From a virus (Duplodnaviria; Caudoviricetes): 26,128 bases of DNA. The stretch spans positions 1 through 26,128 of IMG/VR virus record IMGVR_UViG_3300029319_000429; one strand, 5' to 3'. The position numbers and the translations under genes were made by a program. Under the pieces are notes generated by a model. That model ran no database searches. It saw only the letters and a program-made list of their open reading frames with translations, and was not told where the DNA came from. Below are positions 2,230-20,786 of the stretch, in pieces (positions within the stretch are counted from its first letter, which is position 1; every line of letters begins with the position of its first letter).

Positions 2230-2440
2230 TATCATCCTCCCGGAAAACCTCTACCATCAATACATTAGGATCGTTTATCAAAACCATTCTACCATCTACA
2301 GTAAAAAACTTTGTAAATTGTCCTTGTTCAATAGTATCTGTATCTATTCCTCTTATTGTTTTTCTATAACCACCCTTGAAGTGTATAATCTGTGTGACAT
2401 ACTTTCCTTGTAGGGTTACACTTGACTCAAGATTCTTCAT
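2219..2440 (-). CDS. Small hypothetical protein, predicted beta-rich
   Basis: 73 aa. AAGGTG SD-like element before ATG 2440. Overlaps both neighbours and fills the gap in the operon. Confidence 0.7.
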   Translation of the reverse strand: MKNLESSVTLQGKYVTQIIHFKGGYRKTIRGIDTDTIEQGQFTKFFTVDGRMVLINDPNVLMVEVFREDDNGN

Positions 2441-3266: not shown

Positions 3267-4855
3267 TATCCAACCTCCTGTAGTAAATCGAATCCCCATT
3301 GTTCCATAGTAATATGATTAAATGGATATCCTTTGTAACCCTCAGCTTTGATAAAATCCTCAACACCTTTCTTACCAGCTTCTTTTATTTTACGATTCTC
3401 TTCTAAACTTCTATGTGCTGATGGTTTTAACATATGCATTCTACTAAAATAGAATCGTGGTTCTGTAAAGTTGTAACCATGAATGTTAACACTATAATTG
3501 TAAACCAAATCATCATCACTCTCACAACCAAAAAATCTAAACTTTTCACTATTTGGTGGGAATGGATGTATCTCTTTTGGTAAATCTATGTTTTGTTCCT
3601 CTATCATCTTTCTTAGTTTGCTACTGAACACAACATCTAAATCACCATTCTTATTCTTTCTTGCATCTACTCCCATGACTGCTAAGATAGCACTATTACA
3701 TATTGCATATTCTTCTTTTGGAAAACCCATCACATCCATTAACTCAATAAAATTAATATACTTTAGTGGATTTTCTGCGTTACCTTTAAACACTTCTTCT
3801 GATGGCATATAAAATGGTATGTAACTTTTACCATTTATCAATCTACCAATCATAGACACTGCTCTATGATATCCATGCTTTAAGAAACCACCAAAGAAAT
3901 TAACAGGATCGTCAATTAATGCCACCTGTATTTCTTCGTCTGTCATCATCTCTAAAGAATTGTAATATTCTTTAGTCATATTTTCCCAACCTCTGTCGTG
4001 GTGGTTTTCAACGTTACGTCTAAACTCAGCCCACATACAATTCCAATACTGATGATTACCTCTATTGACTTTCTTTACAGTCTTCTTGACATTTTCCACA
4101 TCAGAAAAGTATTCTAATGCTTCTCTTACAGTTTTGATTTGTTTGTCATTATGTATAATCTCTTTACCACCACTACCATGTTGTAACTCCATATTCAGAA
4201 AATATTCTAAGTTGATTGGTACTGTAATCAATAAGTTTTCAATAAATGTTTTATAAGTATTATCCTCTATAAAATTTCCAGCTGAAAGATAAGTTTCGTA
4301 GTGATGTTTACTTAGATTAGTGTACTCGTCTATATGATATATTCCTTCTAAATCTATTAGAGTTGGCTTTCCTTCAAATTCATATGTGTGGTTTTTACAA
4401 AAATCGTATGAGAAATATCTACTTTCAATAGTTTTTATTTTTACTTTAACCAACATCTCATTAAAATGTGATTGTGATTTGTCTGTAAGTCTGACTAACT
4501 TTTGTTCAAGACTATCTTCTTTTGTAAATAACTGCTTACACTCTTTGGTGACATAACCTCTACAGATATTATTCTCATCATAAATCAAACCAACAAAGTT
4601 TGGAACGATTGTGCTATCATAGAAACCACTTGCGAACGCTTGTGGTAAAGTGTTAATTCTAATATAATCTTCATCCCACACCTTAACAAAATACTCATCT
4701 GTCTGATAGATAGTTCTATTGTGGTTTTCACTTCCCCAACGACTATCTTTGTGTTTGACTTGTTTGTAACTCTTGAAATCTAAATCTTCATACTTGAAGA
4801 CATCATAAACATCTCCAATCAAAGATTCAAACTCAAATATTTTCGTAAAATTCAT
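3266..4855 (-). CDS. Multidomain protein: kinase-like N-terminus, ParB/Srx-like middle, Pol-beta nucleotidyltransferase-like C-terminus
   Basis: 529 aa. YFVKVW, VPNFVGLIYD..GYVT, YDFCKNH..LIDLE (kinase-like); LKHGYHRAVSM (G-x-H-R); AICNSAILAVMG..R....GDLDVV (NTase-like). Confidence 0.5.
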   Translation of the reverse strand: MNFTKIFEFESLIGDVYDVFKYEDLDFKSYKQVKHKDSRWGSENHNRTIYQTDEYFVKVWDEDYIRINTLPQAFASGFYDSTIVPNFVGLIYDENNICRGYVTKECKQLFTKEDSLEQKLVRLTDKSQSHFNEMLVKVKIKTIESRYFSYDFCKNHTYEFEGKPTLIDLEGIYHIDEYTNLSKHHYETYLSAGNFIEDNTYKTFIENLLITVPINLEYFLNMELQHGSGGKEIIHNDKQIKTVREALEYFSDVENVKKTVKKVNRGNHQYWNCMWAEFRRNVENHHDRGWENMTKEYYNSLEMMTDEEIQVALIDDPVNFFGGFLKHGYHRAVSMIGRLINGKSYIPFYMPSEEVFKGNAENPLKYINFIELMDVMGFPKEEYAICNSAILAVMGVDARKNKNGDLDVVFSSKLRKMIEEQNIDLPKEIHPFPPNSEKFRFFGCESDDDLVYNYSVNIHGYNFTEPRFYFSRMHMLKPSAHRSLEENRKIKEAGKKGVEDFIKAEGYKGYPFNHITMEQWGFDLLQEVG

Positions 4856-5465
4856 TTTGTTTAATTTGTTTCTCTATTGTTTTTGGATGATATAATGATA
4901 ACTCTTCGTGTGGTGGTAAGTGTGCATATGTTTTTCCACCTTGTATTATTTCATGAACTTTTCCAGTCCATCTGATTCCATCTGCTTTTCTAAATACCCT
5001 TGCTTGGTAATCTGGATAGTTTACCCAATCCTTCTCTGATACTCTCCAACCCCATTTTTGTATCCACTCTTCGGTTAATCCATCTACTGTGTTAACTCTT
5101 GGCACCCAAATTAAATCAACATCATTCATTTCTACTATCTGTTTTATTTGGGCTAGTAATACTTCATGTGGATATTCATCTGCATCAAAGTGAAATACAT
5201 AGTCACCACTACTATTTTCTATTACTGAATTCTTCTGTGCTGCAAAATCACCATTGAGTTTTCTCTGATACACCTTGATAGTTTTCATATCTTCGTGTCC
5301 ATATTGTTGAACCCAACTTGTGATTACCTCTTGTGTTTTCTCATCAGAGTAATCATCACATATTACAATCTCATCCTCAGCATCAGTTTTATGTATGAGT
5401 ATTTCTAATAACCTATTTAATTCTTCAGCCTCATTGTGAACTGTTATTCCGTAACTAATCTGCAA
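4833..5465 (-). CDS. Glycosyltransferase family 2
   Basis: ISYGITVHNE, ICDDYSDEKT, FAAQKN, FHFDADE (DxD), YPDYQARVF, WTGKVHE. Probable start TTG 5465 after AGAGGTG; the ORF track's GTG 5471 lies inside that SD. Confidence 0.9.
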   Translation of the reverse strand: MQISYGITVHNEAEELNRLLEILIHKTDAEDEIVICDDYSDEKTQEVITSWVQQYGHEDMKTIKVYQRKLNGDFAAQKNSVIENSSGDYVFHFDADEYPHEVLLAQIKQIVEMNDVDLIWVPRVNTVDGLTEEWIQKWGWRVSEKDWVNYPDYQARVFRKADGIRWTGKVHEIIQGGKTYAHLPPHEELSLYHPKTIEKQIKQNEFYENI

Positions 5466-5949
5466 AATCACCTCTAAATTGTGTAGGTATAATATTCTTA
5501 AAGTCGTAGTCTAATACTCTAACTTGTCCCATCTTATCCATCTTGTATGTTCTGTAAGCTGTTTCGACTAAACCACTAATTTTTGTCAACTTAGTATCAT
5601 AGAATTTAGATGCATCTATTCTACCTGTTGTTAAATTAAATTTAACCATGTTACCACCACTTGGATTTTCTACATCTTCATCCACAGATGGTGCACCAAT
5701 TATTTGTGCAAATCTTCGTAAATGATTATCAGAAACCATATCCAAACTTAAACCATGAACTAACTTCTCCTTTAATGCTCCAGCAGGAGGCCAGACACTC
5801 AGAACAATAGCTCCAACCAAGTTTTCCTCAACCTTTCCACCCTTAACTTTCTCATACCTAAATTCTATCATTGTTCCAGGATCTATCTTACTTCTTGGTA
5901 TTGTAGTTCTTTTTATTACTCTAGATCTATGCTTTACTAAAAATCCCAC
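5455..5949 (-). CDS. Hypothetical protein, possibly a distant T4 gp2-like DNA end protector
   Basis: 164 aa, TAGTG overlap at the start. PGTMIEFRY, VHGLSLDM and AYRTYK echo the gp2-family spacing (G.M..F.Y / GLNLHY / .K.Y) as recalled. Confidence 0.45.
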   Translation of the reverse strand: MGFLVKHRSRVIKRTTIPRSKIDPGTMIEFRYEKVKGGKVEENLVGAIVLSVWPPAGALKEKLVHGLSLDMVSDNHLRRFAQIIGAPSVDEDVENPSGGNMVKFNLTTGRIDASKFYDTKLTKISGLVETAYRTYKMDKMGQVRVLDYDFKNIIPTQFRGDFAD

Positions 5950-6440
5950 TAATCTTCCTTTTTCTTCAAGTCTTTAATTATACCCATATCTTGACATGCT
6001 TTGAAAAATTCAAACTTATCATAAACTTTTGCGTTATCCACATCAAGTCTCTTATCATAATTATTATAGTTTGCACGTTCCTCTTCAGGTATTTCAACAA
6101 CTTTTGCATATTTCCAAACATAGTTCTTTTTGTCTTTAGCTTTAAAAGAAGCTCTTGATTCTGATGAAACACTTTCATCTGGATATATTATGCCTAACTC
6201 ACCCATATTGATAACACAAGGAAACCAAACTATACCTCTACTTTCATCGTGGTATTGTAAATCTTGAACTAACTGAGGACTTGCATTCATATTGTCAACT
6301 AACTCTACACTACCAGCCCTATATCTTGTATCACTCATGTAACCACAATTGAAACACATGAAACTACTGAAGTTTTCTTGCATCTCTTCAAAACAACTAT
6401 CTCCATCCTTACATACAGGACAAATTACAACTCTTTCCAT
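5949..6440 (-). CDS. Zinc-finger-containing hypothetical protein
   Basis: 163 aa. N-terminal CPVC and CFNCG. TAATG overlap with the GT4 stop. Confidence 0.7.
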   Translation of the reverse strand: MERVVICPVCKDGDSCFEEMQENFSSFMCFNCGYMSDTRYRAGSVELVDNMNASPQLVQDLQYHDESRGIVWFPCVINMGELGIIYPDESVSSESRASFKAKDKKNYVWKYAKVVEIPEEERANYNNYDKRLDVDNAKVYDKFEFFKACQDMGIIKDLKKKED

Positions 6441-7810
6441 TACATCTTCCTCAACTTAGGTAGTTTAATTACATCTTTAACTTTTGGTTCATCCTTTGGT
6501 GGTTTGATTGCACCTGTTTGTCCACCATCAATCTTTTTTAACTTAGGTAGTTTAAGACTTACCGCTTGTGGAACATCACCAATCATTTTATCTACCATCT
6601 CAACAAACTTAGCACCCATGTTAGCTCTTGTAAATTTCTTTGTATTTGTTTTACCCAGCTGATTGAATATCGGTGTGTATTTTTGATAGTTTTTATAAAC
6701 ATCTTTCATCACTTTTGCAGCTTTACTATAATTTACTGAGAACCAAGCCATACCGTCTACGAACATTCCTTTTTGAAATGCTTTCTTTGGAACTTTAGTT
6801 AAACTACCCTCTAAAGCTGTACTTAAACTTACAGGTAAGAAATCTATATGTCCACTCCAAGCTGGAAATATAACTGGCTTACCTGTTAGTGATGCCTCAA
6901 GTAATGGTCTTCCAAAACCCTCACCATGTGTAAATGAAATGTGAGCTTTGACTTTAGGATGATTGTATAGTTCATTCATTTCGTAATCTTCTAAATCACC
7001 ATGTAACAAATAGATGTTTGGTAAGATTTTAGCATCAACTGTTTTTCTAATAGCTTCTATCTTATTTAACATATCTTCTCTGTCCATAACAGAAAATGTA
7101 GCACTACTTGTTTTTAGTATCAGAGCTGGTCTCTTCTTCTTACCTGTATTCTTAAATGTTTCTAAGAATGTCTTTATCAACATACCGACATCTTTTCTAT
7201 CTTCTGTAAGATTACCACTTAACCAATGTCCTACAAATAAGAAACAGAATGGTTCTCTAATTTTGTTCATCTCAGCAACCAATTCCTCTGAAAACTTGTT
7301 TGTCTTACCAAATACTTTTTCATCAAAACCCTCAAACAACACATCGATTGGTGTATTCACTCCATGAACACCAACAACTTCTTTACCCTGCTTTTCTTCA
7401 TACTTTGTTTGTAGTATCATTTCTTTTACAAACTCAGCAGGAACTATGTTGTGATTCATTCTATTCATCCCATCAACCCATTCTTTTGGTATTGCTGTTG
7501 CTTCTAATCCTGCAGTTATACCAAGATTTTTTTTACCAATTTTCTGAAACTCACTTGGGACTGTAACTTGAATATGTAAATCAGGTTGTTTTTCTAACCT
7601 ACCCTCATAAATCATGTTATCCAATATAAGTTTATGGTCAGGATTCTGTTCGTTTAGTGCATTCATTGGTGTGTTTCCCCAACGAAGTGATGCTACTCTA
7701 ACATCATACTTGTTTGATTTCAATAACTCTAAAGCTAAATCTCTAGCATGATCTCCGTAACCACTTCTTGTAGCTACAGGACCTTGAAATAAAATAAAAG
7801 GTTTAGTCAT
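6440..7810 (-). CDS. Glycosyltransferase family 4 (GT-B)
   Basis: SGYGDHARD near the N-terminus, FLFVGHW, HGEGFGRPLLEASLTGKPVI (E-x7-E signature). AGGAG SD. Confidence 0.9.
   Translation of the reverse strand: MTKPFILFQGPVATRSGYGDHARDLALELLKSNKYDVRVASLRWGNTPMNALNEQNPDHKLILDNMIYEGRLEKQPDLHIQVTVPSEFQKIGKKNLGITAGLEATAIPKEWVDGMNRMNHNIVPAEFVKEMILQTKYEEKQGKEVVGVHGVNTPIDVLFEGFDEKVFGKTNKFSEELVAEMNKIREPFCFLFVGHWLSGNLTEDRKDVGMLIKTFLETFKNTGKKKRPALILKTSSATFSVMDREDMLNKIEAIRKTVDAKILPNIYLLHGDLEDYEMNELYNHPKVKAHISFTHGEGFGRPLLEASLTGKPVIFPAWSGHIDFLPVSLSTALEGSLTKVPKKAFQKGMFVDGMAWFSVNYSKAAKVMKDVYKNYQKYTPIFNQLGKTNTKKFTRANMGAKFVEMVDKMIGDVPQAVSLKLPKLKKIDGGQTGAIKPPKDEPKVKDVIKLPKLRKM
6453..6555. repeat. 16-bp direct repeat AACTTAGGTAGTTTAA (6453-6468 and 6540-6555) encoding a duplicated KLPKL motif
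   Basis: Two exact copies read from the sequence; the protein tail has LKLPKLKK and IKLPKLRK. Confidence 0.85.
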
Positions 7811-7818
7811 TATAACTC

Positions 7819-9198
7819 CTATGCCTTATATAAGGTGTATCGTTTTCTTGGTGTCCACTTTTCGAATGCAGTGTCCATGTCTTTGATAAATCGTTTGCTC
7901 ATATTTTCTGCTGTCATACCTATCTCTTCTGTCTGAACAAACTCAACTCCTTTTTCACCACACTCTTTTCTTTTCTCTTCACTCATATCATAAAAATGCT
8001 TTAATCCCTCTGCAGCATCTTCATAACTTGGTCTGTCATCAAAAATATATGGTGTTGGTGGTGAACCTTGTAATGAAATGTTAGAGGGAAATACTGGAAA
8101 CGCCCATTCACCGCACTCCCTATATTTCCCCCTATGATTGGATTGAAACTCATCATTGTAATCATCTACCGTTAAATATGAACCATCTTCTTTCTTAAAA
8201 CCACATTGATCCTGTAAACCACCTGTAACATTAACTACAATTGGTGTTCCACACATCAATGATTCACAAGTTCCTAATCCAAATCCCTCATTCGATGCTA
8301 TGTTGATTGTAACATCAGCCATATTATACATGAAACACATTTGGTCATTATCTAATTTCTCATTAGAAAAAATAACGTCGTAGTCTGGACAAAGTTCTTC
8401 TACTACTTTAGGTAAATCTGTTCCATTGTCATCAATAGGTTGTGTGTGCATTACTAATGCACATTTTTTTGCTTCTTCTTTTGGTAACATATCACAGAAC
8501 GTCTTAAAAGACATAATAACATCACCTGGCAACTTACGTCTGATATTCCTATTATTCCAAAAGACGACAAAATCATAAGTCTTATTACGTAACACGTGTT
8601 TTTTGAAAGTTACTGACTTATCATATTTCTTGTGTAAGCTATCAATAGGTTCAAAGTATTTGTGATTGATACCATGTGGAATGTAAGTATTATCCCATTC
8701 AGTTCTTGGTTTATTTCTACATACATTATCTACAATATTAACTGTTTGTCGTGATATGTTCATAATCAAATCACAACTCTCATAGTAAGGTTCATTCCAT
8801 CTTGGATAAGGTAAATCATCCCAAATATTGTAATAGAATATAGGAATATTTTGTCTTATCTCATGCTCCATGTTAAATAACCATATCCAAAATCGTGGGT
8901 CTGTATAAATCATAATAGCGTCGGGCTTTTCTATATTCATTACAGCTCTTAGTGTTTCATCATTTCCATAACCACTTATTGGATATATCTTTAGATATGC
9001 ATCTTTAATACCATAATCTTTTTCAACCGATTTAGAAATATCGACTACGTTTCCCTCTTCTGGATGTTTTATAGCTCCACCCATCTGAACCCAATCATAT
9101 CTGTCAAGTGTTCCCATTACGAACTCTCTTGACATAGTTCCAACACCACTTGACATTCTCAAGTCGTCTGATAGTAATAATATTTTCTTTTTAGCCAT
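7819..9198 (-). CDS. Glycosyltransferase family 4 (GT-B)
   Basis: KILLLSDD..SGVG, YIPHGIN, NRNIRRK, SNEGFGLGTCESLMCGTPIVVNVTGGLQD (E-x7-E). Confidence 0.92.
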   Translation of the reverse strand: MAKKKILLLSDDLRMSSGVGTMSREFVMGTLDRYDWVQMGGAIKHPEEGNVVDISKSVEKDYGIKDAYLKIYPISGYGNDETLRAVMNIEKPDAIMIYTDPRFWIWLFNMEHEIRQNIPIFYYNIWDDLPYPRWNEPYYESCDLIMNISRQTVNIVDNVCRNKPRTEWDNTYIPHGINHKYFEPIDSLHKKYDKSVTFKKHVLRNKTYDFVVFWNNRNIRRKLPGDVIMSFKTFCDMLPKEEAKKCALVMHTQPIDDNGTDLPKVVEELCPDYDVIFSNEKLDNDQMCFMYNMADVTINIASNEGFGLGTCESLMCGTPIVVNVTGGLQDQCGFKKEDGSYLTVDDYNDEFQSNHRGKYRECGEWAFPVFPSNISLQGSPPTPYIFDDRPSYEDAAEGLKHFYDMSEEKRKECGEKGVEFVQTEEIGMTAENMSKRFIKDMDTAFEKWTPRKRYTLYKA

Positions 9199-10256: not shown

Positions 10257-11120
10257 TTATTTGACTCCTGCATCACAGTATTCAGTTTGATTAAACTCAC
10301 AGAAACGACAGTTCTTTTTTGAAGCTTCTTTCCTATAAATATGTTGTTCGTTATACTTTCCATCAATAAAACATTCATCAATGAAAGATTTAATATTATT
10401 GGTTACTTTGTTTATACTTGGTGTTCCGTTTGCAGGTGTAAATGTCTGAACCCTACGTTGTGGAAAATCTAATTTTTCATATAATTTACGTTTTACGATA
10501 AAATATTCTATGTCTATTCTATCTAATGGTATATCGTGTTGAGCACCATAAAATTGTTTATATAATAGTAGTTGGTCTGTCTTTGTCTTGTCAGCTTTAG
10601 CCCACTTGTTCCAACCCATCGTAGAAGTCTTGATATCAATAATCTTATATCTATCTCTTACAGTATCGTGTAGTAGAACGTCAATGTAACCAACAAACTT
10701 GATATCGTTAGGTAAGTCATACTCAATGGGAACCTCTATACCAACTAATTCATAACCTTTCTTATTAAAATACATAGCTCTCTTCTTAACAAACCATTCT
10801 ATTATTGCCAATCCATGCTCATAGAACTCTTGCATTTCTTCTTGAGAGGTTATCTCCTCACCACCCAAGTCTTCTACTATTTCTTTGTAGTAATGTTTCA
10901 TTCGATGTAGTAACATATCAGCTAATGGTAACGAATCTGCCATCTTGATTGTATCATTATACATTACAGTTAGATATGTCTGCAATACATCGTGCATAGC
11001 AGAACCAAACAAGGTATGTATGTTACCCTTGAATGTTCTTAACTCATCTATATAATTTAGTTTCCACTTATGTGGACATACAGCCCATTGTGAATATTGA
11101 CTGTAACTAATCTTTTTCAT
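10257..11120 (-). CDS. PD-(D/E)XK exonuclease, AddB/Cas4-like, with Fe-S cluster cysteines
   Basis: ISYSQY..CPHKW, GSAMHDVL, GYIDVL..IIDIKTS, QLLLY, C-terminal CRFC..C. Confidence 0.88.
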   Translation of the reverse strand: MKKISYSQYSQWAVCPHKWKLNYIDELRTFKGNIHTLFGSAMHDVLQTYLTVMYNDTIKMADSLPLADMLLHRMKHYYKEIVEDLGGEEITSQEEMQEFYEHGLAIIEWFVKKRAMYFNKKGYELVGIEVPIEYDLPNDIKFVGYIDVLLHDTVRDRYKIIDIKTSTMGWNKWAKADKTKTDQLLLYKQFYGAQHDIPLDRIDIEYFIVKRKLYEKLDFPQRRVQTFTPANGTPSINKVTNNIKSFIDECFIDGKYNEQHIYRKEASKKNCRFCEFNQTEYCDAGVK

Positions 11121-11124
11121 ATCT

Positions 11125-11156
11125 GAATATACAACTTTTTTTCATTATAAGTCAAG
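11125..11156 (-). promoter_or_regulatory. Sigma70-type promoter CTTGACTTA-N15-GTATATTC, copy upstream of the nuclease
   Basis: TTGACT (11155-11150), 18-nt spacer, TATATT (11131-11126). Same architecture at 14037 and 20755. Confidence 0.75.
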
Positions 11157-11784
11157 CCCTTTTTAGTTTTTTTATTTTCTTTTTAATACCTTTGTTAAGA
11201 TAGTAAACGTATTTGTTTTTACTCTTTCTCTTTCTAAAAAATACATCAGGATCACCAGCTTCCCATCTTGCTCTAATTCTTCTACTATATGGTTTGATTG
11301 GTTGACTTAGAGACCTACTATGATATTCCTTACCATCTACCATCAAAACTCTACCAGCGCCAGTCTCACCCACAAACTCAAAATTACTAGCTCTATAAAT
11401 TACACCTGTGTGTCCATGTTCTTTGTCTGCGAATGAGATGATTACTTCATAGTTTGTATTTTGTTTTAACCACTTGATTGTTTTACCGATAAAGTAACTT
11501 TCTGCATTCTTTGGTGTGTCGTCAATACAAACTAATCTTCTCAACTCCACACACCTATCAGGATTGATAGGATTGTATGCTCTTGCAGTATTTGGCATAG
11601 ATGGTATAGCATACATCATAGCACCTACCATTTTTGGAATACCAAAGTTGCCAGGTGCAAATAATGCGAAACACTCTAAACCTTGTATTCCATTAGTACT
11701 ATGACTATAATGGTGTTTTTGAATAAACTCTTGTATAGCCATACGAGGAACAACCTCAACTATGTAGTCTTTTAAATCAGCCAA
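11152..11784 (-). CDS. Mom-like (GNAT-fold) DNA adenine modification protein, paralogue 2
   Basis: FIQKHHYSH, VELRRLV..PKNAESYFIG, IISFADKEHGHTGVIYRASNFEFVG, YHSRS, KNKYVYYL. Confidence 0.78.
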   Translation of the reverse strand: MADLKDYIVEVVPRMAIQEFIQKHHYSHSTNGIQGLECFALFAPGNFGIPKMVGAMMYAIPSMPNTARAYNPINPDRCVELRRLVCIDDTPKNAESYFIGKTIKWLKQNTNYEVIISFADKEHGHTGVIYRASNFEFVGETGAGRVLMVDGKEYHSRSLSQPIKPYSRRIRARWEAGDPDVFFRKRKSKNKYVYYLNKGIKKKIKKLKRA

Positions 11785-12286
11785 CAGTTCTTATACTTTG
11801 TCCGTCCGATGGAAAATATAAACCAACTGATTGCAGTTGCTTTTTTTCTACACCATATTTCTGTAACATATCTGATAGTTCCATCTGACCAGCTACAGTT
11901 AACATATACATTTCGATAGCATCAACTGCTTCTCTTACACTAACTTCTAAGTCATTACGAACTACATTAACCAACCAATTTGGATAATCCATATTCTTTT
12001 TCTTCTTTCCCTTGATGTATCTAAGGTAATAATTTCCTTTTGGAATGATATCCATATACGTTTTGTATATCAGTTCAGGTTTCAAGTTATACTTCTGAAC
12101 TTCATTCACTATGGGTAGGAAATCTGATCTCATTGATAAGAATCGATTGACAAGAAATGTCGACCAACCCTTTTTGTCTTCATCAGAAAGTGATTCCCAA
12201 AATCCTTTTTTCTGATACTTTGTAATTTGATTTAAATAATCAAATACACCTTTACGTTTAACTGTCTGTCGCTTCGCCAATTCCAC
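11777..12286 (-). CDS. Clamp loader small subunit, T4 gp62-like
   Basis: FDYLNQI, FLVNRFLSM, VNEVQKY, YLRYIKGKK. Located just downstream of the clamp loader ATPase. Confidence 0.72.
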   Translation of the reverse strand: MELAKRQTVKRKGVFDYLNQITKYQKKGFWESLSDEDKKGWSTFLVNRFLSMRSDFLPIVNEVQKYNLKPELIYKTYMDIIPKGNYYLRYIKGKKKKNMDYPNWLVNVVRNDLEVSVREAVDAIEMYMLTVAGQMELSDMLQKYGVEKKQLQSVGLYFPSDGQSIRTVG

Positions 12287-12521
12287 TTCCCTCTAGTAGA
12301 CTTGATGGAACATGACCACAATTACCACAACTATAAACTTGTATTGGAACTAAACCCTCTTCACCTGTAGGTGATACAAGTGCTGATATTCTTTTCAATA
12401 CATAAGATGTAATAAACAAGTAGTTCGTACACTTTTCACATTTCATAGTTTCAGCTTGTGCCAAATCTACTTTTACTTGAGCTTGTGGTTTCTTGATGGG
12501 TCCTTTCGGATGCATACTCAT
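12258..12521 (-). CDS. Zinc-ribbon protein
   Basis: 87 aa with CEKC and CGNCG. ATGA overlap with the clamp loader stop; AGGAG SD. Confidence 0.72.
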   Translation of the reverse strand: MSMHPKGPIKKPQAQVKVDLAQAETMKCEKCTNYLFITSYVLKRISALVSPTGEEGLVPIQVYSCGNCGHVPSSLLEGSGIGEATDS

Positions 12522-13435
12522 TTGATAACTCCTAATAATTCTATTAACATAGCCATAAAGTTTATTTCCTTATCCACGACTTGCATATCTGATTGTTCAT
12601 ATCTGGCTAATATCAATATGACTTCAGCTATGTGTCCTTTTGCATATTCATCAACATTGTCGTATAATAATCTAAAACAATCTGAATAATCTCTGATAGC
12701 GTTGTCAGCAAGTAGTTGTCTAAGATTAGTAAAAGCCGTCTTCTTATCTTGTGTCTTCAAAATGTCTAAGACTTTTAACTTGTAATCATTTTGTATCGCA
12801 CTCTGTCTATCCATCACAACTTTATTATCTACCACACTTCTTTGTGTTGCATTAATAATCTTTCTAACATCTGGATAACTACTATCAATTAGAACCTTTA
12901 AGTCTTCATTACTATACTCAATACTTTCCTTACCCATAACTTTGGTAAGATGTAGTGCCACCTCTTTCTTATTAGGTGGTATAATTTCAAATACTTGACA
13001 ACGACTTTGTAGGGGGTCGATTATTCTTTCCACATAATTACAAGTTAGAATAAACCTACAATGTTTTGAGAATGTTTCCATAAGATTACGAAGTGCTGCT
13101 TGAGCATTTGGTGTAATGTAATCACACTCATCCAAGATAATAACTTTCATCTCCTTAAAACCAATTGTGGATGCGAATTGCCTTACCTTGTTACGAACTG
13201 TATCTACACTATTCTCATCAGATGCGTTTATATATAGATAATCACACTCAATATTCTTTACAATAAGTTTAGCAAGTGTTGTCTTACCTGTTCCAGCTCT
13301 ACCGAACAAAAGTAAGTGTGGAACATCGTTTGACTTGATATACCTCTCTACTTTTGCTTTTAGATGTTCGTTACCAACATAATTTTCTAACATAGTCGGG
13401 CGATATTTCTCAACCCATAGAGAATGTTTACTCAT
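12518..13435 (-). CDS. Clamp loader AAA+ ATPase (T4 gp44 / RFC small subunit-like)
   Basis: LWVEKYRP, Walker A GRAGTGKTT, INASDE, Walker B ILDECD, SRC motif (LQSRCQ). Confidence 0.95.
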   Translation of the reverse strand: MSKHSLWVEKYRPTMLENYVGNEHLKAKVERYIKSNDVPHLLLFGRAGTGKTTLAKLIVKNIECDYLYINASDENSVDTVRNKVRQFASTIGFKEMKVIILDECDYITPNAQAALRNLMETFSKHCRFILTCNYVERIIDPLQSRCQVFEIIPPNKKEVALHLTKVMGKESIEYSNEDLKVLIDSSYPDVRKIINATQRSVVDNKVVMDRQSAIQNDYKLKVLDILKTQDKKTAFTNLRQLLADNAIRDYSDCFRLLYDNVDEYAKGHIAEVILILARYEQSDMQVVDKEINFMAMLIELLGVIK

Positions 13436-14006
13436 CTTTCATTCCTTTTGTTATTATTTCTATAATATCATCTAACTCAAACACTCTGTGCTTTGCTTCG
13501 ATATGATGGTTGTATGGTCTATCCATAAGAATAAATCCATCTTCCATTCCTCTTCTTTCTTTCCAATACTTCCAATTGTTTGGTGAATCATCAACAAGAA
13601 AATCTACAGGTGTATTTGGTTTGTCGACACCTCTTCTGAAATATATCGTGTCAAAGTTTAGTTCATGCTTACCTAACCAATATGCCGTATGATATCTTGC
13701 GTGTGGTTTCTGAGATGTAACACATACAAATCTTACACCAACTTCCTCACCCCACTCAATCATAGCTTTCATTTGTTTTACGTTCTCTTCGAACGCTGGT
13801 GAGTTACCCATAATTTCTTTACTGTAGTCTTCCCAATATATCTTTTGTAAATCAGGTTTACTTGCTCTAAAGTTTTCTGATAGCTTCCAATTATTTATAC
13901 CTGTATAATCATCAGGCAAATATTGTGGATAATTTTCTTTTACTACTTTTTCTAATCCATAACAGAAGTCTCTCAAAACTCCGTCTACATCTATTCCTAT
14001 TACCAT
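13428..14006 (-). CDS. HAD-family 5'(3')-deoxyribonucleotidase (NT5C-like)
   Basis: IGIDVDGVLRDF (motif I), VTSQ (motif II), K..VDDSPNN (motifs III/IV), DRPYN. Likely start ATG 14006. Confidence 0.88.
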   Translation of the reverse strand: MVIGIDVDGVLRDFCYGLEKVVKENYPQYLPDDYTGINNWKLSENFRASKPDLQKIYWEDYSKEIMGNSPAFEENVKQMKAMIEWGEEVGVRFVCVTSQKPHARYHTAYWLGKHELNFDTIYFRRGVDKPNTPVDFLVDDSPNNWKYWKERRGMEDGFILMDRPYNHHIEAKHRVFELDDIIEIITKGMKDE

Positions 14007-14036
14007 AAGGTTGTATTTCTCCAATTTATTATACCA

Positions 14037-14068
14037 GAATATACGAATAAAAACCAGTATAAGTCAAG
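14037..14068 (-). promoter_or_regulatory. Sigma70-type promoter CTTGACTTA-N15-GTATATTC, copy upstream of the nucleotidase and clamp loader genes
   Basis: TTGACT (14067-14062), 18-nt spacer, TATATT (14043-14038). Followed immediately by TGGTATAAT, a possible second extended -10. Confidence 0.78.
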
Positions 14069-14093
14069 TCTTTTTTCAGCTATCTCTTCCCAT

Positions 14094-14918
14094 TTATTTT
14101 TTAAGGTCCTTACTCTGATAGAAATGGGTTTGTGATTCTTTTGAGTTTTCATAATCATCCATTATTTTTCCTCTAGCACATTCATGTATCCAATCAGAAT
14201 GTAAGTATTTTTTTGATAAAAACCCTATTTGATTAGAGTTAAATAGTCTATTATACTTGTAGTTATTTAAATTAGGAAATTCATTTCCCCAACTACTCAA
14301 TTTTTTACCACCTCTGTATTCGTATTCACTTGTTTTTTCATCAACTAACTCTGGTGAAACATATGCATCATATCTTGGTTCAAATCCACCTATCTCTTTA
14401 ACAGTTTTGTATTGCATAGCTAAGAAACTTGGTCTAACACTTATAAGGTTTTTGATTGGTTTGTCAAATATATGTCTATTCTCTTCTTTAACATAATCAA
14501 CTGCTCTCATACCATCAAACTCTTCCTTAATACCAACATCAATAACCTTATTATAGTCATAGTTTTGAACAAGATAGTTAGCACCATTACCGACAACCTT
14601 GTATCCATCTAAGGTAAGAATTTCAATAACTAATTGAATAAATTCAAAATTCTTTATGACTAAATCATCGTGCATAAAGAAACACACATCTTCATCATCT
14701 ATGTCAAGATAGTTTATAGCTTGTTCGTATGCACCATACTCTTCTCCACCATTAGGAAACACCTTATAATCAAAGTTTTCTTTTATAAAATCTGTAGGTT
14801 CTTTATGACACGACCAAAATACGTGAACATCATCTGAATTATATTCTTGTAATGTATTAAAACCATTTAATACTGTGTCTTGATTCATGTGCCAACCACA
14901 TATTATAAATCTAATCAT
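14094..14918 (-). CDS. Putative GT-A (GT2-like) glycosyltransferase
   Basis: N.G.EYGAYEQAI followed by VCFFMHDDL, and later KEIGGFE, typical of GT2-like folds. Confidence 0.55.
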   Translation of the reverse strand: MIRFIICGWHMNQDTVLNGFNTLQEYNSDDVHVFWSCHKEPTDFIKENFDYKVFPNGGEEYGAYEQAINYLDIDDEDVCFFMHDDLVIKNFEFIQLVIEILTLDGYKVVGNGANYLVQNYDYNKVIDVGIKEEFDGMRAVDYVKEENRHIFDKPIKNLISVRPSFLAMQYKTVKEIGGFEPRYDAYVSPELVDEKTSEYEYRGGKKLSSWGNEFPNLNNYKYNRLFNSNQIGFLSKKYLHSDWIHECARGKIMDDYENSKESQTHFYQSKDLKK

Positions 14919-14919
14919 A

Positions 14920-15255
14920 TTATTTATTCATAAGTTGTATTAAAATTATCGTTGCTGCAAGAACTAAACAAAGAACTGTCTTCCAATTAGGTATCTCACC
15001 TAATATACCCCAAGTCATTACTGCAAATATCAAGTTACCAAGACCAAATCCTATTAATCTAATATTCCACACATAACCAAAGTGTTCATACGAAAGTCGT
15101 GTTGAATAATAAAACAGATAACTTATAGGTAATCCTGCTAATATTATCCACCATTGAGATTTCATAAAATCCCACTTGAATTGTCCGTTCATATGAAAAA
15201 ATGCTATTATGTGTCCTAATATACTAAGACAGATAGCTCCTATTAACTTACTCAT
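14920..15255 (-). CDS. Small membrane protein with about four TM helices (SMR/DMT-like topology)
   Basis: 111 aa with four hydrophobic segments and a late GE motif (WGILGEIPNW) as in DMT proteins. Confidence 0.6.
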   Translation of the reverse strand: MSKLIGAICLSILGHIIAFFHMNGQFKWDFMKSQWWIILAGLPISYLFYYSTRLSYEHFGYVWNIRLIGFGLGNLIFAVMTWGILGEIPNWKTVLCLVLAATIILIQLMNK

Positions 15256-16009
15256 CAATAGTCATGTCCCTGTCTACAAATATTGTCCAACTTCTTCTTA
15301 TAAAATCTGTTAAAATTGGGTTAACGCCATGTTCAACATCATTACCTTGTGTAAAATCTAATATAGCTGCATTACCTAAAGTTGGTTCTAAAACATCACC
15401 ATCACATACTAGTTCACCACCATCGCCAGGTTTCCAATCCTCATTTGCGTAAAGTAATATAGTACAAAATCTTTCACTACCATATGTTCCATCACAATGT
15501 GATTCTAACCACATATCTTTGAACATTATTCTACCATTAATATCATATTGTTTATCATAACCTATACCATCATTTTTAGGATTATTAGTATAACACGAAT
15601 TAAAAATCTTTTCTAAAATTGGCACAATACCATCCCATTCTGAGCGCTCAGTTGAAGCTACCTCACATCTACCATCAAAAAAATGTAATTTTCCATTAGA
15701 GTTTGTAATTGTTTGAGTAAAAAATTTTTGTAAATTAGCCCATCCACTTAACTCCTCTAACATATTCTCCCAATCAATATCAATTGTAGGTGTAGGATTA
15801 ATAGATACATTAATACCATATATTGATTGGTTATTTTCATCACGAAAGGATGGTGTACGGCGATTATATCTATATTCTATATTCTTTATATTGTCAAAAG
15901 TTAAAGCTTCGTCTCTTACAAGCCTTAATTTTTGCGTATCTTCTTCATTTAATTTGAAAAATAAATAACCATCTTCTTGTAATTTGTCTAATTGTTTTTC
16001 ATTAAACAT
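15248..16009 (-). CDS. 2OG-Fe(II) oxygenase, prolyl-4-hydroxylase-like
   Basis: HCD (HxD), TILLYANEDWKPGDGGEL, EHGV, RRSW. Confidence 0.88.
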   Translation of the reverse strand: MFNEKQLDKLQEDGYLFFKLNEEDTQKLRLVRDEALTFDNIKNIEYRYNRRTPSFRDENNQSIYGINVSINPTPTIDIDWENMLEELSGWANLQKFFTQTITNSNGKLHFFDGRCEVASTERSEWDGIVPILEKIFNSCYTNNPKNDGIGYDKQYDINGRIMFKDMWLESHCDGTYGSERFCTILLYANEDWKPGDGGELVCDGDVLEPTLGNAAILDFTQGNDVEHGVNPILTDFIRRSWTIFVDRDMTIDE

Positions 16010-16779
16010 TACTTGTTTCCTAATTTACTTTCTACTTTAATCTCTTCCACAGGTGGAACGTATTGTTTTGGATTTGTAGGATATGGTTTTGATTCATACT
16101 TTAAATTTTTCATATATTTTTTGTTTTCTTTTTTGTTACCTATAAAATAGATGTAACGATGTTTTTCAGGTTCTTTTCTTCTCCAAAACGTATGTCCTAT
16201 AGCTGCTTTCAATTTATCTACATTATGACTTCCCCAAGTAGCTGATACAGTTCTACTGTGTATCCACTCATAAGGTTTGACTAAAGATACTGAATGATTT
16301 GGCATTAGATTCAATCCTGCACCTTGATATAACCAATTGGTAGCTTTGTAAATACCACCCAAATGTAATCTATCAGGATCTGCGTAACTGATTAATACCT
16401 TTATATTCTTGTCATACTTCTTTAACCATTTAAACGATTGTGAAATAGAATAAGATTCAATATTTTTACCATAACCATCGTGTATAAAAAGTCTTGTCAG
16501 CTCTAAGATATTCTTGGTTTGTAAAATATTCTCATCTTTAAATATGGAACCCATTACAGACCTACCAACAGGATACCCATAAGTCATACAACCCACCAAC
16601 TCTTCTTCATTCATATCAGAAAAAAATGGATGTGGTTTGTCTGACTTATAGAATATACCTATTGCGTATCTACACGAAGAAAACTTGTGAGAGTAATGAT
16701 TTTTTTCAATCATCCTCTTAGCTGTTTTCTTATCTATCTCTTGCAGATAAACTCTTGATTTATCTACATATTGTTCCAT
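16009..16779 (-). CDS. Mom-like (GNAT-fold) DNA adenine modification protein, paralogue 1
   Basis: IEKNHYSH, VGCMTYG, LELTRLF..GKNIESYSIS, LISYADPDRLHLGGIYKATNWLYQG, IHSRT, KHRYIYFI. Confidence 0.82.
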   Translation of the reverse strand: MEQYVDKSRVYLQEIDKKTAKRMIEKNHYSHKFSSCRYAIGIFYKSDKPHPFFSDMNEEELVGCMTYGYPVGRSVMGSIFKDENILQTKNILELTRLFIHDGYGKNIESYSISQSFKWLKKYDKNIKVLISYADPDRLHLGGIYKATNWLYQGAGLNLMPNHSVSLVKPYEWIHSRTVSATWGSHNVDKLKAAIGHTFWRRKEPEKHRYIYFIGNKKENKKYMKNLKYESKPYPTNPKQYVPPVEEIKVESKLGNK

Positions 16780-17510
16780 TAGTCTACAGTTGTTTTTGCT
16801 ACCAATACATAAGTAGAATCAAAATCATCTACCTTAAAATTGACTTTAGCTAATCCTGCACTTGAAACGTAAAGTGTTGCTGATTCACAATCTTTATTTG
16901 CTGTCAACACTTCTTTGAAAGTATCTGCGTCAAAGAAAACCGCATCATCAAGTGAAGACATTTTACTTGTCTCTACAGGAATAGTCACTTTATTAGATTG
17001 TGTGCTTGAACTATAACCAATTACAACTTTGGCATCAACTCCATCACAAAGGATAGCGAATGTAGAAACATCACTTAGAGCACCCTTACCTGATATGAAT
17101 GAAGAGATAAATGCTTTATCTAATTTAAGTTCTAACTCAAACTCTGGAATGTTAGTCAAGTCAGGTTTCTTTGAAACCACATCAAGACGAGCTAATCCAT
17201 AATTGACTTTAGTGTTATTTGTTTTCTGTGCGATTACTAACTGAGATACAACATCTCCGACTTCATTAGCTTCTATAACTAACTCACCATCTAAAACGTT
17301 TAGTAACTTAATTAAGTCTTGAATCTCATAGAGACCCATTTCGTAATCACCAAAACCATTCTTAGCCAGAACAATATCACCAACACAGCTTTTTGCTGAA
17401 TTGATAAATGAACAACTAAGAGTATCTTTTGTTGAAACCACTGGCGCAGATTGTGTTTGTCCACCTAAGTAAAACCTATTGACAAATCCCATCAACGTTT
17501 GTTTATCCAT
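16779..17510 (-). CDS. DNA polymerase sliding clamp (gp45/PCNA-like)
   Basis: 243 aa, acidic, two-domain clamp-like pattern ending GLAKVNF..STYVLVA. Located between the polymerase and clamp loader genes. AAGGAG SD. Confidence 0.7.
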   Translation of the reverse strand: MDKQTLMGFVNRFYLGGQTQSAPVVSTKDTLSCSFINSAKSCVGDIVLAKNGFGDYEMGLYEIQDLIKLLNVLDGELVIEANEVGDVVSQLVIAQKTNNTKVNYGLARLDVVSKKPDLTNIPEFELELKLDKAFISSFISGKGALSDVSTFAILCDGVDAKVVIGYSSSTQSNKVTIPVETSKMSSLDDAVFFDADTFKEVLTANKDCESATLYVSSAGLAKVNFKVDDFDSTYVLVAKTTVD

Positions 17511-17561: not shown

Positions 17562-18227
17562 TTAAAGTAATTTTCCATTAAATACATCATAAAGATGTTC
17601 TGCATATTTTCTGTAACCCTCTGTATAAGGATGGTTACTTTTATTAAGTTTAAAATCATTTTCAACACACCATTCCATACAACCCTTAAATCCGTCATGA
17701 AAATAAAAATTATCCCAATCTATACATTCTTCTAAATAACTGACTTTTTCATATTTTTGATAAAATTCAGATAATATATCTCTATGGGTTAAGAACAAAT
17801 ATTTTATGTTTTTTTGTTTTAAAAAATTTTGAATATTCAACATATTCAGTATAGTATGATAATATGCGTTTTGATTATCATACGCATATCTGTAATGGTG
17901 TTTTTTAAAATTAGGGAATTGTTCTTGTCCGCTGTGAACCCATCTGTCATTTTTAATCATATCATACCTATGCAATCCCGACCACATCACCATCACCACA
18001 AAATCTTTATCACTATATTGATTAACTAATTCATAAACTTTGTTAGCCATATAAAAAGAACCAACACCATTTTTACCATAATTAACACACGTTCTATTGG
18101 TTAATTTACCTAACCATGAAGGCCAACTATCTAATTCATAATGTTTTGCAGTAGTCATTACTGGCTGATTTTCATTATCATGACCTATTGTATAACTACA
18201 TCCAACTGCTAAAATATACTTATCCAT
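17562..18227 (-). CDS. SGNH/GDSL-hydrolase-like protein
   Basis: ILAVGCSYT (block I Ser), NYGKNGVGS (block II), VMWSG..R, HPYTEGY (block V His). Confidence 0.68.
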   Translation of the reverse strand: MDKYILAVGCSYTIGHDNENQPVMTTAKHYELDSWPSWLGKLTNRTCVNYGKNGVGSFYMANKVYELVNQYSDKDFVVMVMWSGLHRYDMIKNDRWVHSGQEQFPNFKKHHYRYAYDNQNAYYHTILNMLNIQNFLKQKNIKYLFLTHRDILSEFYQKYEKVSYLEECIDWDNFYFHDGFKGCMEWCVENDFKLNKSNHPYTEGYRKYAEHLYDVFNGKLL

Positions 18228-20728
18228 TAGAAAAATTTATTAAAACCAAAATCATCATTTGGTTCTTCCCATTTTAATGCTTCATACAACATCTTAACTT
18301 TCTTAGCAAGTGCTTGTTTGTAAATCTTATCTGTATCAATATGTTCTTTGATATATTCTAAAACTTGTGGTGGGTCTTCGTGTCCTTTGTAACATATTGT
18401 TTCAAACTTAAATGGATTGTCTTTTAAATAAGTCCATTTAATCTTCTCACCATTTCCAACTGACGGATATTTCTTATTCAACTTATTCAATAGTAGAAAG
18501 TTATTGTAGTTAATGGCTGATTTAATATGAACGGGCGTACCTTTCTTTGGTATCAATATACCCTCACCCTTTTCAATAAACTTCTTAACATTTTTTGCAG
18601 ATGTCGGCATAGCTATCGTATCATACTTTTTGAGTTTCATAGATTTCTTAAAGTTTAAGATAAACTCATCAATCTTACCCTTTGGAACATCAGCCAATAT
18701 ATCTTCTAATACTTTGGTAAGACACTCTTTGAACGCTGCAGGGAAACTTGAACGAACAATATCCAAACCCTTGACATGAAGTTTGTTTACCTTTACACCA
18801 TTGTCGTTGATAATCTTCATACCATATCGTTTCTTCGTAACGAACAACCCACCTTTTGCTATTAACTCCTGCTTAATCTCAAACCTATGTTCATCTATGT
18901 TACAAAACTTCTGAGCAAACAAGTCATAAGATTTATTCAGATATTTCTGAACATCCGATGCGATTTCTAATATCTTTTCTGTAACTATAGCTTCGTCTTT
19001 GATATCGACGTGTGGATATTTCTTCTCAATGATAGGAATAGCAGAATAGAAAACTGAATCTGTATCAATGTAAATACAATAATCGTCTTTATCACCCAAC
19101 GTAGAATTATAATAGTGATTAGCCATCCTCTTAGTATATTTAATCAGTTCTACACCTGTTGTCGTGGTTGCTTCTGCGTTATCCAAATCATAGAAACGAA
19201 ATACAGGCAATCCCAACACACCATACAATGAGTTTAGAACAACCTTTTGAATATATTGTCGTCTATCAAAGTATGCGTATTTGTCTTTATCACCTTGTTC
19301 AGCGAACTTCTTTGCTAACTTTCTAAACTGAACCCTATCATCAAACCACTTTTCCAACAACGTTGGTATGAGACCTCTTCTATCTTGTGTATATAATACA
19401 CCATTGGAAGATACAGATACATTATTATCATTTAAAAAGTTCTTAAATTCTGCTGTGGTTAACTTTGCAGTTTCTTTACCATACTTGTTGTTTATAGTAT
19501 ATGTCTTATCTACACCTTTCAAGAATGGTTCTACATCCCAACTATCTAACTTACCCAACTTAGTTTCGGGTGATATATTAAGACTCATAATGATAGATGG
19601 ATACATACTTGTAATATCTAAGTCATACACCCATTCGTGCTTACCCTTTTGAGGATCCTGAACATATGCACCTGTAAATTTATCATTACCATCCATCAAT
19701 TGTCTATTTGCTTTTACTTTATTCGGTGCTACAATACCAACCTTTTTAAGATAGACAAGAATAGCACCCTCAAGAAATCTTGATGAGTAATACACGTCTT
19801 CATATGGAACGTGTCCTAAGTGACAGATAGCTCTAGCGATATCAATAAAGTCTAATTTCTTGTCCAACTCTTGTAATATCAAAACGTCATTGATGTTGTA
19901 TTCAACAAACCTATTTCTGTCATTGTCATACAAATCATTTAATGTTCCCTCATAAGATACCTTTTTGATACCAACCTCTAACTCACCAATATCATCTAAT
20001 CGATATGAAGACCTCTCACCAAATGTAAGTTTCTTGTATAATTCAAGATAATCAAGTGAAGATACACCTGCTATCTTGTATGTTCCTCTATGTTTCTGAA
20101 ACTCTACGATACCGATAGGTGAAAGACAATTTGCAGCTTCTTGTCCTAATAATCTTATAGTTCTATTATATAGATAAGGAACGTCAAATCTATCACTATT
20201 CCAACCACTAATGATTGTTGGTGATATCTCAAGATATTTTGTGTAGAATGCTTTTAGTAAGTCTCTTTCATCTTGAAATTTAATAACAGTAGAATTACCA
20301 AAGAGACCTGTGTTCACTTTGTTCTCTTTATCAAGAACATAACAATAATATTGTTTAGTTAGTACGTCGTAGAATGCAATTGATGTGATGGTGTTATCAG
20401 CTCTATTGACATCAGGAAAACCTTGTGTGACTTCTACCTCAATATCAAAGAACATCACACGATGTCCCTCTGAAACATCATCGGAATCTGTATACTTATC
20501 AACCAAAAAACGTATTTCTGGTGCTACATCTGATTCAAATGGTATATCAGTTTCATCAATTCTACTGATTGGTAATTTTCTTAACTTATCACCATATAAA
20601 GATGTGTAGGTTCCTTTGGGATCCTTAACATATGCATATTGACTAAAGGGATGAACTGAATATCCAGTCTTGTCATCCCATATATGGATTCTTCGTCTCT
20701 TAAACTGATAAAAGATGTTCTGATATAT
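18227..20728 (-). CDS. polB: Family B DNA polymerase (T4 gp43-like), 833 aa if initiated at ATA 20728
   Basis: ExoI FDIEVE, ExoII GWNSDRFDVPYL, ExoIII YNINDV, DLDITSMYPS, KVVLNSLYG, YIDTDS. The frame is open 74 codons upstream of the ORF track's TTG 20506. Confidence 0.96.
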   Translation of the reverse strand: MYQNIFYQFKRRRIHIWDDKTGYSVHPFSQYAYVKDPKGTYTSLYGDKLRKLPISRIDETDIPFESDVAPEIRFLVDKYTDSDDVSEGHRVMFFDIEVEVTQGFPDVNRADNTITSIAFYDVLTKQYYCYVLDKENKVNTGLFGNSTVIKFQDERDLLKAFYTKYLEISPTIISGWNSDRFDVPYLYNRTIRLLGQEAANCLSPIGIVEFQKHRGTYKIAGVSSLDYLELYKKLTFGERSSYRLDDIGELEVGIKKVSYEGTLNDLYDNDRNRFVEYNINDVLILQELDKKLDFIDIARAICHLGHVPYEDVYYSSRFLEGAILVYLKKVGIVAPNKVKANRQLMDGNDKFTGAYVQDPQKGKHEWVYDLDITSMYPSIIMSLNISPETKLGKLDSWDVEPFLKGVDKTYTINNKYGKETAKLTTAEFKNFLNDNNVSVSSNGVLYTQDRRGLIPTLLEKWFDDRVQFRKLAKKFAEQGDKDKYAYFDRRQYIQKVVLNSLYGVLGLPVFRFYDLDNAEATTTTGVELIKYTKRMANHYYNSTLGDKDDYCIYIDTDSVFYSAIPIIEKKYPHVDIKDEAIVTEKILEIASDVQKYLNKSYDLFAQKFCNIDEHRFEIKQELIAKGGLFVTKKRYGMKIINDNGVKVNKLHVKGLDIVRSSFPAAFKECLTKVLEDILADVPKGKIDEFILNFKKSMKLKKYDTIAMPTSAKNVKKFIEKGEGILIPKKGTPVHIKSAINYNNFLLLNKLNKKYPSVGNGEKIKWTYLKDNPFKFETICYKGHEDPPQVLEYIKEHIDTDKIYKQALAKKVKMLYEALKWEEPNDDFGFNKFF

Positions 20729-20754: not shown

Positions 20755-20786
20755 GAATATACGAATAAAATAGTATGTAAGTCAAG
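20755..20786 (-). promoter_or_regulatory. Sigma70-type promoter CTTGACTTA-N15-GTATATTC, copy upstream of the DNA polymerase
   Basis: TTGACT (20785-20780), 18-nt spacer, TATATT (20761-20756). Shares TTTTATTCGTATATTC exactly with the 14037 copy. Confidence 0.8.

Follow-up and report, generated by a model that had tools for sequence, protein, structure and literature searches.

Two long-diverged members of the Mom family, Mom1 and Mom2, are encoded among the replication genes of IMGVR_UViG_3300029319_000429, a 26-kb virus record with all its long genes on the (-) strand, from an uncultured T4-like phage of water; the whole stretch analysed, 26,128 nucleotides, is called the window below. Both genes are intact and, with a probability of about 0.6, encode independent adenine-aminoacylating anti-restriction enzymes with different targets. 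Family membership, the fold of Mom1, catalytic residues, purifying selection, gene position and a promoter-like motif are supported directly; the chemistry, the difference in targets and the role against restriction are inferred. Each Mom would transfer an aminoacyl group to the N6 of adenines once phage DNA has been newly copied and is double-stranded, the donor most likely being glycine on a charged tRNA, by analogy with the Mom of phage Mu. The two would probably hit different sequence motifs, the modified adenines would block host restriction enzymes, and modification could keep up with replication if the Moms are expressed together with polymerase, clamp and loader. Mom1 may also grip the clamp through an H-x-F-F hairpin, Mom2 probably working free. 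The genes concerned are the following.

16009..16779, (-) strand: Mom1, 256 amino acids, Mom-family protein of GNAT fold, directly after the clamp gene
11152..11784, (-) strand: Mom2, 210 amino acids, TTG start, last gene of a putative clamp-loader unit
16779..17510, (-) strand: gp45/PCNA-type sliding clamp, 243 amino acids; profile match to 1b77, expectation value (E) 7.5e-4
11777..12286, (-) strand: gp62-like clamp-loader small subunit; phrog_225 at E 4.8e-14, PF16790 at E 0.003, under its cut-off
12518..13435, (-) strand: gp44-like clamp-loader AAA+ subunit; phrog_168 at E 1e-85

Judged by profile and structure matches, Mom1 and Mom2 are Mom-family proteins and not generic GNATs. The PF25680 profile scores 160.8 bits with Mom1 (E 4e-47) and 132.1 bits with Mom2 (E 2.6e-38) against a curated cut-off of 27.1, and phrog_1384 matches them at E 8e-48 and E 3.6e-55, respectively. 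By sequence the best solved relative of each is Mu Mom, 8bv8 (E 1.6e-7 for Mom1; E 1.6e-13 for Mom2, with the runner-up at 0.17). The AlphaFold model of Mom1 (predicted local distance difference test, pLDDT, 92.5) matches the same structure at E 4e-13, whereas no other GNAT does better than 4e-4, and has helices at residues 175-182 and 187-194 where Mu Mom has a helix-turn-helix-like insertion that its activity requires; this fold comparison covers Mom1, the placement of Mom2 resting on sequence. Identity of the window Moms to Mu Mom is about 25%. To each other they are 31% identical across 213 columns (BLASTP, E 2e-22), and Mom1 types and Mom2 types form separate deep clades. An earlier note on this DNA had called the pair divergent Mom paralogues from a list of shared motifs and had proposed comparing both with Mu Mom. 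Its reading is borne out: every motif listed is found in both proteins, HYSH and HSR in common and the others as variants (Mom1 first: ELTRL/ELRRL; KNIESY/KNAESY; ISYADPDRLHLGGIYKATN/ISFADKEHGHTGVIYRASN; KHRYIY/KNKYVY), and the nearest structure, by sequence and fold for Mom1 and by sequence for Mom2, is that of Mu Mom and not of a non-DNA GNAT. The clamp and gp62-like assignments of the same note also hold, the clamp model (pLDDT 94) having PCNA as its top Foldseek matches (E 6e-13).

Mu Mom is the sole Mom with worked-out chemistry in the literature surveyed, and a single late gene; its product is 6-NcmdA and its target motif SAS. It moves glycine from Gly-tRNA to adenine N6, post-replication, as a dimer, and naked double-stranded DNA down to 11 bp suffices (PMC13219725). 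The residues named for it in that work are W48, H58, Y59, R111, S124, D149, R151, Y159 and W181, and equivalents of six of these nine (H58, Y59, R111, S124, D149 and Y159) are present in both window Moms. Among 101 Mom1-type and 31 Mom2-type representatives (270 sequences, dereplicated at 90%), the equivalents of H58, Y59, R111, S124 and Y159 are invariant (101/101 and 31/31) and that of D149 is kept in 96/101 and 31/31. The ratio of nonsynonymous to synonymous substitution rates (dN/dS), taken against three relatives, is approximately 0.06-0.07 for Mom1 and 0.06-0.09 for Mom2, matching clamp and gp44 in 3/3; on these ratios both Moms are under purifying selection. Both look active, and the notion that either is a dead partner is ruled out by the intact catalytic residues together with dN/dS.

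Several residues weigh against a simple transfer of the Mu scheme. R151, which is essential in Mu Mom (PMC13219725), is replaced by an acidic residue in both (D in Mom1, E in Mom2), W181 is retained by Mom1 and absent from Mom2, and the dimer residue W48 is found in neither. The R151 column also varies among 78 homologues taken from prokaryote contigs and cultured phages and among 103 cluster representatives, in most of which His stands at Mu position 154; Mu is the outlier in these alignments. The idea that a protein without R151 must be inactive was accordingly rejected, the column varying family-wide. Because the wider family does not keep R151 either, Mu chemistry is not simply transferable, and Mu's donor, motif and dimer state should not be assumed for Mom1 and Mom2.

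Across a broad clade the Moms keep their places next to clamp and gp62, in a pattern that is not random. Relatives were picked by clamp, to avoid selecting on Mom, and gave 97 loci in 52 groups at 95% clamp identity, one of them the window's twin; the second clamp scan took the best 80 of 520 and is biased to closer relatives. In the 51 groups with the next gene visible (the remaining one reaches its contig end after the clamp), the clamp is followed by Mom1 in 25, gp44 in 12, a methyltransferase-like gene in 7, a PALP enzyme in 6 and an unassigned gene in 1. Six of the seven methyltransferase-like genes belong to one family, whose one scanned member falls just under the Pfam cut-off. Mom2 follows gp62 in 19/20 groups with Mom1 after the clamp as against 0/15 others, the neighbour of gp62 being out of view in 17 of the 52 groups, where loci end early. 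The synteny survey proposed in the earlier note thus finds non-random placement for both Moms. Five of the 15 groups without Mom2 after gp62 carry a Mom1 type elsewhere, and on the clamp plus gp44 tree there are at least three changes of state, with gp62's neighbour in view for two; the joint presence or absence of Mom1 and Mom2 reflects a few events. In more distant relatives the Moms, single or in tandem runs of up to three, lie between DnaB and polB or follow gp44. The relatives are T4-like phages of 216-271 kb, G001 having portal, major head and baseplate matches, and ten long records, several of them incomplete, hold 2, 2, 2, 4 (one under cut-off), 2, 3, 2, 0, 1 and 2 Mom matches. Two sets of cultured phage records (296 and 245) each yielded one Mom place; Microcystis phage Mel-JY01, the nearest cultured phage by polymerase (48.6%), has no Mom in the 32 kb examined.

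A repeated motif, TTGACT-N18-TATATT, speaks for co-expression more strongly than the gene overlaps do; it occurs in three copies in the window against 0.06 expected.

18227..20728, (-) strand: Family B DNA polymerase (PolB), ending FGFNKFF, a putative clamp-binding tail
20756..20785, (-) strand: promoter-like TTGACT-N18-TATATT before polB, which would drive polB-clamp-Mom1
14038..14067, (-) strand: promoter-like TTGACT-N18-TATATT before NT5C-gp44-Zn-gp62-Mom2
11126..11155, (-) strand: promoter-like TTGACT-N18-TATATT where Mom2 ends, ahead of the PD-(D/E)XK nuclease gene

A similar promoter-like site precedes polB in 12/21 relative loci examined, and a scan for generic sigma-70 sites found no more of them than in shuffled sequence. 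If the motif acts as a promoter, it defines two putative transcription units, one joining Mom1 to PolB and clamp and the other joining Mom2 to the loader, and both Moms are probably co-transcribed with replisome genes. The earlier note had described each Mom as transcriptionally fused to a clamp or loader gene on the basis of overlaps. Both overlaps are real, the clamp stop sharing letters with the Mom1 start in TAATG at 16779 and the gp62-like end running 8 nucleotides into the Mom2 start (11777-11784). Overlap as a sign of special coupling is nevertheless ruled out, as 19/30 gene junctions in the window overlap and 23/30 lie within 10 nucleotides; what stands of that claim is probable co-transcription through the promoter-like motif.

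Docking of Mom1 on the clamp through its H-x-F-F hairpin is a tentative prediction, to which we give somewhat less than an even chance, and Mom2, as far as its sequence tells, lacks a docking motif and probably works free. PolB ends in an aromatic pair (FNKFF, SIERFF), and the T4 and PCNA systems suggest that such a tail would bind the phage's clamp. Among 1846 distinct proteins in 245 families, an FF-type tail is carried by 115/121 PolB, 45/163 Moms and 20 others from 10 more families, mostly methyltransferases, PALP, CxxCxxCC and TAGT or PLOD-type glycosyltransferases, against a background of 2.2%. Some Moms terminate KSMEKFF or KFGKFI, two Mom1 relatives having the PolB-like KSMEKFF, and a terminal tail is present in 48/101 Mom1-type and 0/31 Mom2-type representatives. 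The tails are real support for clamp tethering at the family level, and they make docking more probable in relatives that have one than in the window's Moms. For the window the candidate is internal.

16621..16641, (-) strand: DKPHPFF, Mom1 residues 47-53, tip of an extended beta-hairpin and candidate internal docking motif

The hairpin (strands 38-49 and 57-68 in the model) is absent from Mu Mom. An aromatic pair occupies the loop in 87/101 Mom1-type representatives and a loop or a tail is found in 99/101, with neither in 31/31 Mom2-type. The long FF loop is missing from 76 Moms outside the family, bar one 5-residue FW insertion. His stands at -2 of the pair in 75/87 Mom1 loops and 10/16 slot-enzyme tails as against 28/1019 background pairs, the family's Mom1 loops lie at the 94th percentile of background aromatic pairs under a tail-trained matrix, and 12/14 loop-less Mom1 types have a tail (p 0.003).

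Other observations weigh against docking. The window Moms have no terminal aromatic tail, Mom1 ending ESKLGNK and Mom2 KKLKRA. Ranked against background pairs by three tail-trained matrices, the window's Mom1 loop reaches percentiles 87, 77 and 85, and it is outside the top 10 of 7787 windows, and as a way to single out this loop the matrices failed; Mom tails themselves reach the 33rd-64th percentile under them, no better than background. His at -2 is found in 0/27 PolB tails. Loop and tail are kept together in 36/101 Mom1 types, and their anticorrelation rests largely on one clade. FF-type tails in G001 occur also on a radical SAM enzyme and on unassigned proteins. In the model the loop is well ordered (pLDDT 93-95), and single-F versions are seen in Mom2, where the loop is short, and in the 49-kb Polaribacter phage P12002L; given an ordered model and such versions, the Mom1 loop may be structural or bind DNA. 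Last, an earlier-claimed interaction of the T4 alpha-glucosyltransferase with gp45 was not reproduced (bioRxiv 10.64898/2025.12.06.692756). The clamp linkage proposed in the earlier note keeps its conserved gene position and loses ground on two sides, since the window Moms have no PolB-like tail and Moms of distant relatives sit elsewhere in the replication block.

The strongest rival concerns this docking step and no other part of the scheme, and the chances that it is correct are about even. It holds that gene position sets expression timing and that both Moms modify new DNA without clamp contact, the HPFF loop being structural or DNA-contacting and the window's lineage having lost an ancestral tail. 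The generality of overlaps, the shifting of Moms within the replication block, the middling score of an ordered loop, the tail-less window Moms and the failed retest of the T4 precedent all fit it, as does the independence of Mu Mom from the fork: given that naked double-stranded DNA and Gly-tRNA are enough for Mu Mom, the fork is not required, and the suggestion of the earlier note that modification happens at the fork is weakened. What timing does not readily account for is that the FF loop is nearly confined to Mom1 types of the clamp-encoding family, that H-x-F-F is common to this loop and to the tails of unrelated slot enzymes, and that all but two of the 101 Mom1 types have a loop or a tail.

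Returning to two adenine-aminoacylating enzymes, a second rival accepts the Mom-like fold and active site and proposes, for one or both proteins, another reaction with a different amino acid or acyl donor, base or non-DNA target. It is unlikely. In its favour, identity to Mu Mom is low, R151, W48 and, in Mom2, W181 are lost, and two to four copies per genome suggest functional divergence. The donor question bears on it directly. A tRNA-Gly(TCC) gene is present in 3/5 long relatives and none was found in G001, the closest complete relative, a point that also weighs against the favoured donor; there is none in the window or G002 either, and the idea that tRNA-Gly generally accompanies the Mom pair was not upheld. 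Against another reaction stand the six Mu-named residues in both Moms, the DNA methyltransferase-like alternates in the slot, the tRNA-Gly genes that do occur, and the reported activity of metagenomic Mom homologues (PMC13219725).

A DruA-like protein is encoded in 5/5 long records, directly after the clamp in some clades, and tRNA-Gly(TCC) lies upstream of the DruA-like match or gene by 58 nucleotides in G006 and by about 170 in G007. The tRNA is at 10909-10981 of L339 in G006, with the DruA-like gene (PF14236) at 11039-12232, and at 1939-2011 of L214 in G007; the DruA-like product next to it begins with an FF motif. In G006 it is the sole tRNA found and has a weak A-U-rich T-stem (A49-U65, U50-A64, U51-A63), which may be compared with the A49-U65, U50-A64, A51-U63 stem in PMC7826273; the weak stem is confined to the G006 tRNA-Gly, and A51-U63 occurs also in phage tRNA-Ala genes. 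There are hints, then, of glycyl-tRNA chemistry in the family, linked to the DruA-like gene and not to the Mom pair.

A third rival, which we regard as improbable, makes Mom1 and Mom2 a heterodimer or a two-step pathway with Mom1 as tether and Mom2 as second active site. Mu Mom is indeed a dimer, and the joint presence or absence described above (19/20 versus 0/15, at least three changes on the tree) counts in its favour. Each Mom nonetheless has a full catalytic set, the two lie in different putative transcription units, and just two joint losses have gp62's neighbour in view. Mom1 types stand without Mom2 in view in L137, L138, L142 and L212, the 100-kb record G009 has one Mom, and the single match of Vibrio phage F100 is a 43%-identical Mom2 relative; the occurrence of each type without the other in relatives speaks against an obligate form of the heteromer that the earlier note suggested. 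Least credible of all is a restriction-modification-like module of one Mom with the PD-(D/E)XK nuclease gene that comes after Mom2, for which PMC7824862 offers a proposed precedent in the Mom-restriction endonuclease fusions of jumbo phages, given that the nuclease is unfused, is preceded by a promoter-like site of its own, persists in 8 relative groups without Mom in view and is labelled exonuclease in PHROGs; no Mom-nuclease fusion or co-inheritance was found in the window or the relative groups.

The favoured pair of independent enzymes resembles several known systems in part. With Mu Mom (PF25680; PDB 8BV8) the likeness is the GNAT fold, with a candidate counterpart of the Mom insertion in the Mom1 model, the six active-site equivalents and the nearest solved structure. 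Mu, however, has a single copy, tightly regulated and expressed late after replication, whereas this T4-like phage has two deep paralogues in putative replication units, and its long relatives have 2-4 Mom matches; further, R151 and W48 are not kept, Mom1 has its extended FF hairpin, and many relatives bear an aromatic tail. The consulted portion of PMC7261163 confines mom of Mu to late infection and mentions neither clamp nor paralogues. The alpha- and beta-glucosyltransferases of T4 are likewise two post-replicative DNA-modifying enzymes in one T4-type phage, interpreted in bioRxiv 10.64898/2025.12.06.692756 as redundancy versus layered defences, with clamp binding once proposed for one; they differ from the Moms in fold, base and chemistry, and in that gp45 binding was not reproduced. 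Among clamp clients, PMC9690074 and PMC3012046 describe the C-terminal LDFL of T4 gp55 and gp33, an N-terminal peptide of RNase H, and eukaryotic DNMT1 with PCNA. A short hydrophobic terminal motif is common ground with the tailed relatives, and DNMT1 is a clamp-recruited DNA-modifying enzyme, but the window Moms are without a terminal motif and offer the tip of an internal hairpin. Jumbo phages have Mom domains in large T4-like (group 2) members, typically fused to nucleases (PMC7824862), whereas the window Moms are free-standing by clamp and loader genes. No publication was found that describes Moms bound to a clamp or several Mom copies within replication operons, in a search that mostly did not reach subscription journals.

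Abundant phages with two to four divergent Moms form a panel for asking whether tRNA-dependent DNA aminoacylation reaches other motifs or amino acids. They also make testable an old unsettled question, whether phage DNA-modifying enzymes ride the sliding clamp, since the T4 alpha-glucosyltransferase claim was not reproduced and natural Mom variants offer tail, loop, both or neither.

In this phage family the gene following the clamp can be exchanged, its place being a slot for DNA-modifying enzymes. A broader joint reading, possible and on balance rather doubtful, would extend this to a clamp-docked, swappable DNA-modification tool belt behind the fork in a widespread aquatic T4-like family. 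Its members would be Mom paralogues, methyltransferases, pyridoxal phosphate (PLP) enzymes, glycosyltransferases and DruA-like GNATs, with an aromatic motif for clamp binding at the N- or C-terminus, or on an internal hairpin in the case of Mom1. The Mom paralogues would differ in the amino acid that they take from tRNA or in the motif that they target, a phage tRNA-Gly adjusted to avoid EF-Tu would supply some members, and Moms of other elements would have converged on the host beta-clamp motif (QxxLF).

Outside the family, QxxLF C-termini are found in 6/72 Moms, some of which may be related, as against 1/967 other open reading frames (ORFs) of the same loci; the six are in bacterial genome contigs, several of them Bacteroidota (L251, L252, L265, L273, L277 and L287). 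Consensus clamp-binding motifs include the PCNA-interacting-protein box (PIP-box) and the beta-clamp motif QL[SD]LF, which QxxLF resembles. The family's two genome matches are contigs in the metagenome-assembled genome TMED198.

Other occupants of the replication block were seen in relatives. A PALP enzyme and a CxxCxxCC protein, both ending H-x-F-F, replace Mom1 after the clamp (L149 10713-12207, L183 1897-3391, L196 6351-7848); PLP enzymes have a role in base hypermodification, and this pair is a candidate for an unidentified DNA modification. After gp62, a DUF1599/Nmad1-like gene (phrog_1485) is present in 13 Mom2-less relative groups (for example L160 14895-15290) and absent there in the window. 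A 198-amino-acid protein after Mom2 in L096 (10623-11219) resembles DruA (E 2e-7) as well as Mom (E 0.004; phrog_1384 E 1e-6), and on these matches it links the two families. Mom domains are also fused to other sequence in longer proteins of 408-1439 amino acids (P0388, P0405, P0414, P0430 and P0487).

In the window itself, PolB seemingly starts at ATA (20726-20728, (-) strand) behind a GAGG site, adding 74 residues to the listed ORF; the frame reads IYQNIFY from there, and relatives start MYQNIFY. In several relatives (L018, L021, L028, L096) polB is in two ORFs. The stretches 14094-16009 and 17562-18227 hold variable genes, present or absent between clamp and loader in close relatives, among them a 2-oxoglutarate-Fe(II) oxygenase, unassigned proteins of 274 and 221 amino acids and a membrane-like protein of 112. 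Finally, a glycosyltransferase and DegT aminotransferase cluster spans 1081-9198 and is kept in relatives with and without Mom.

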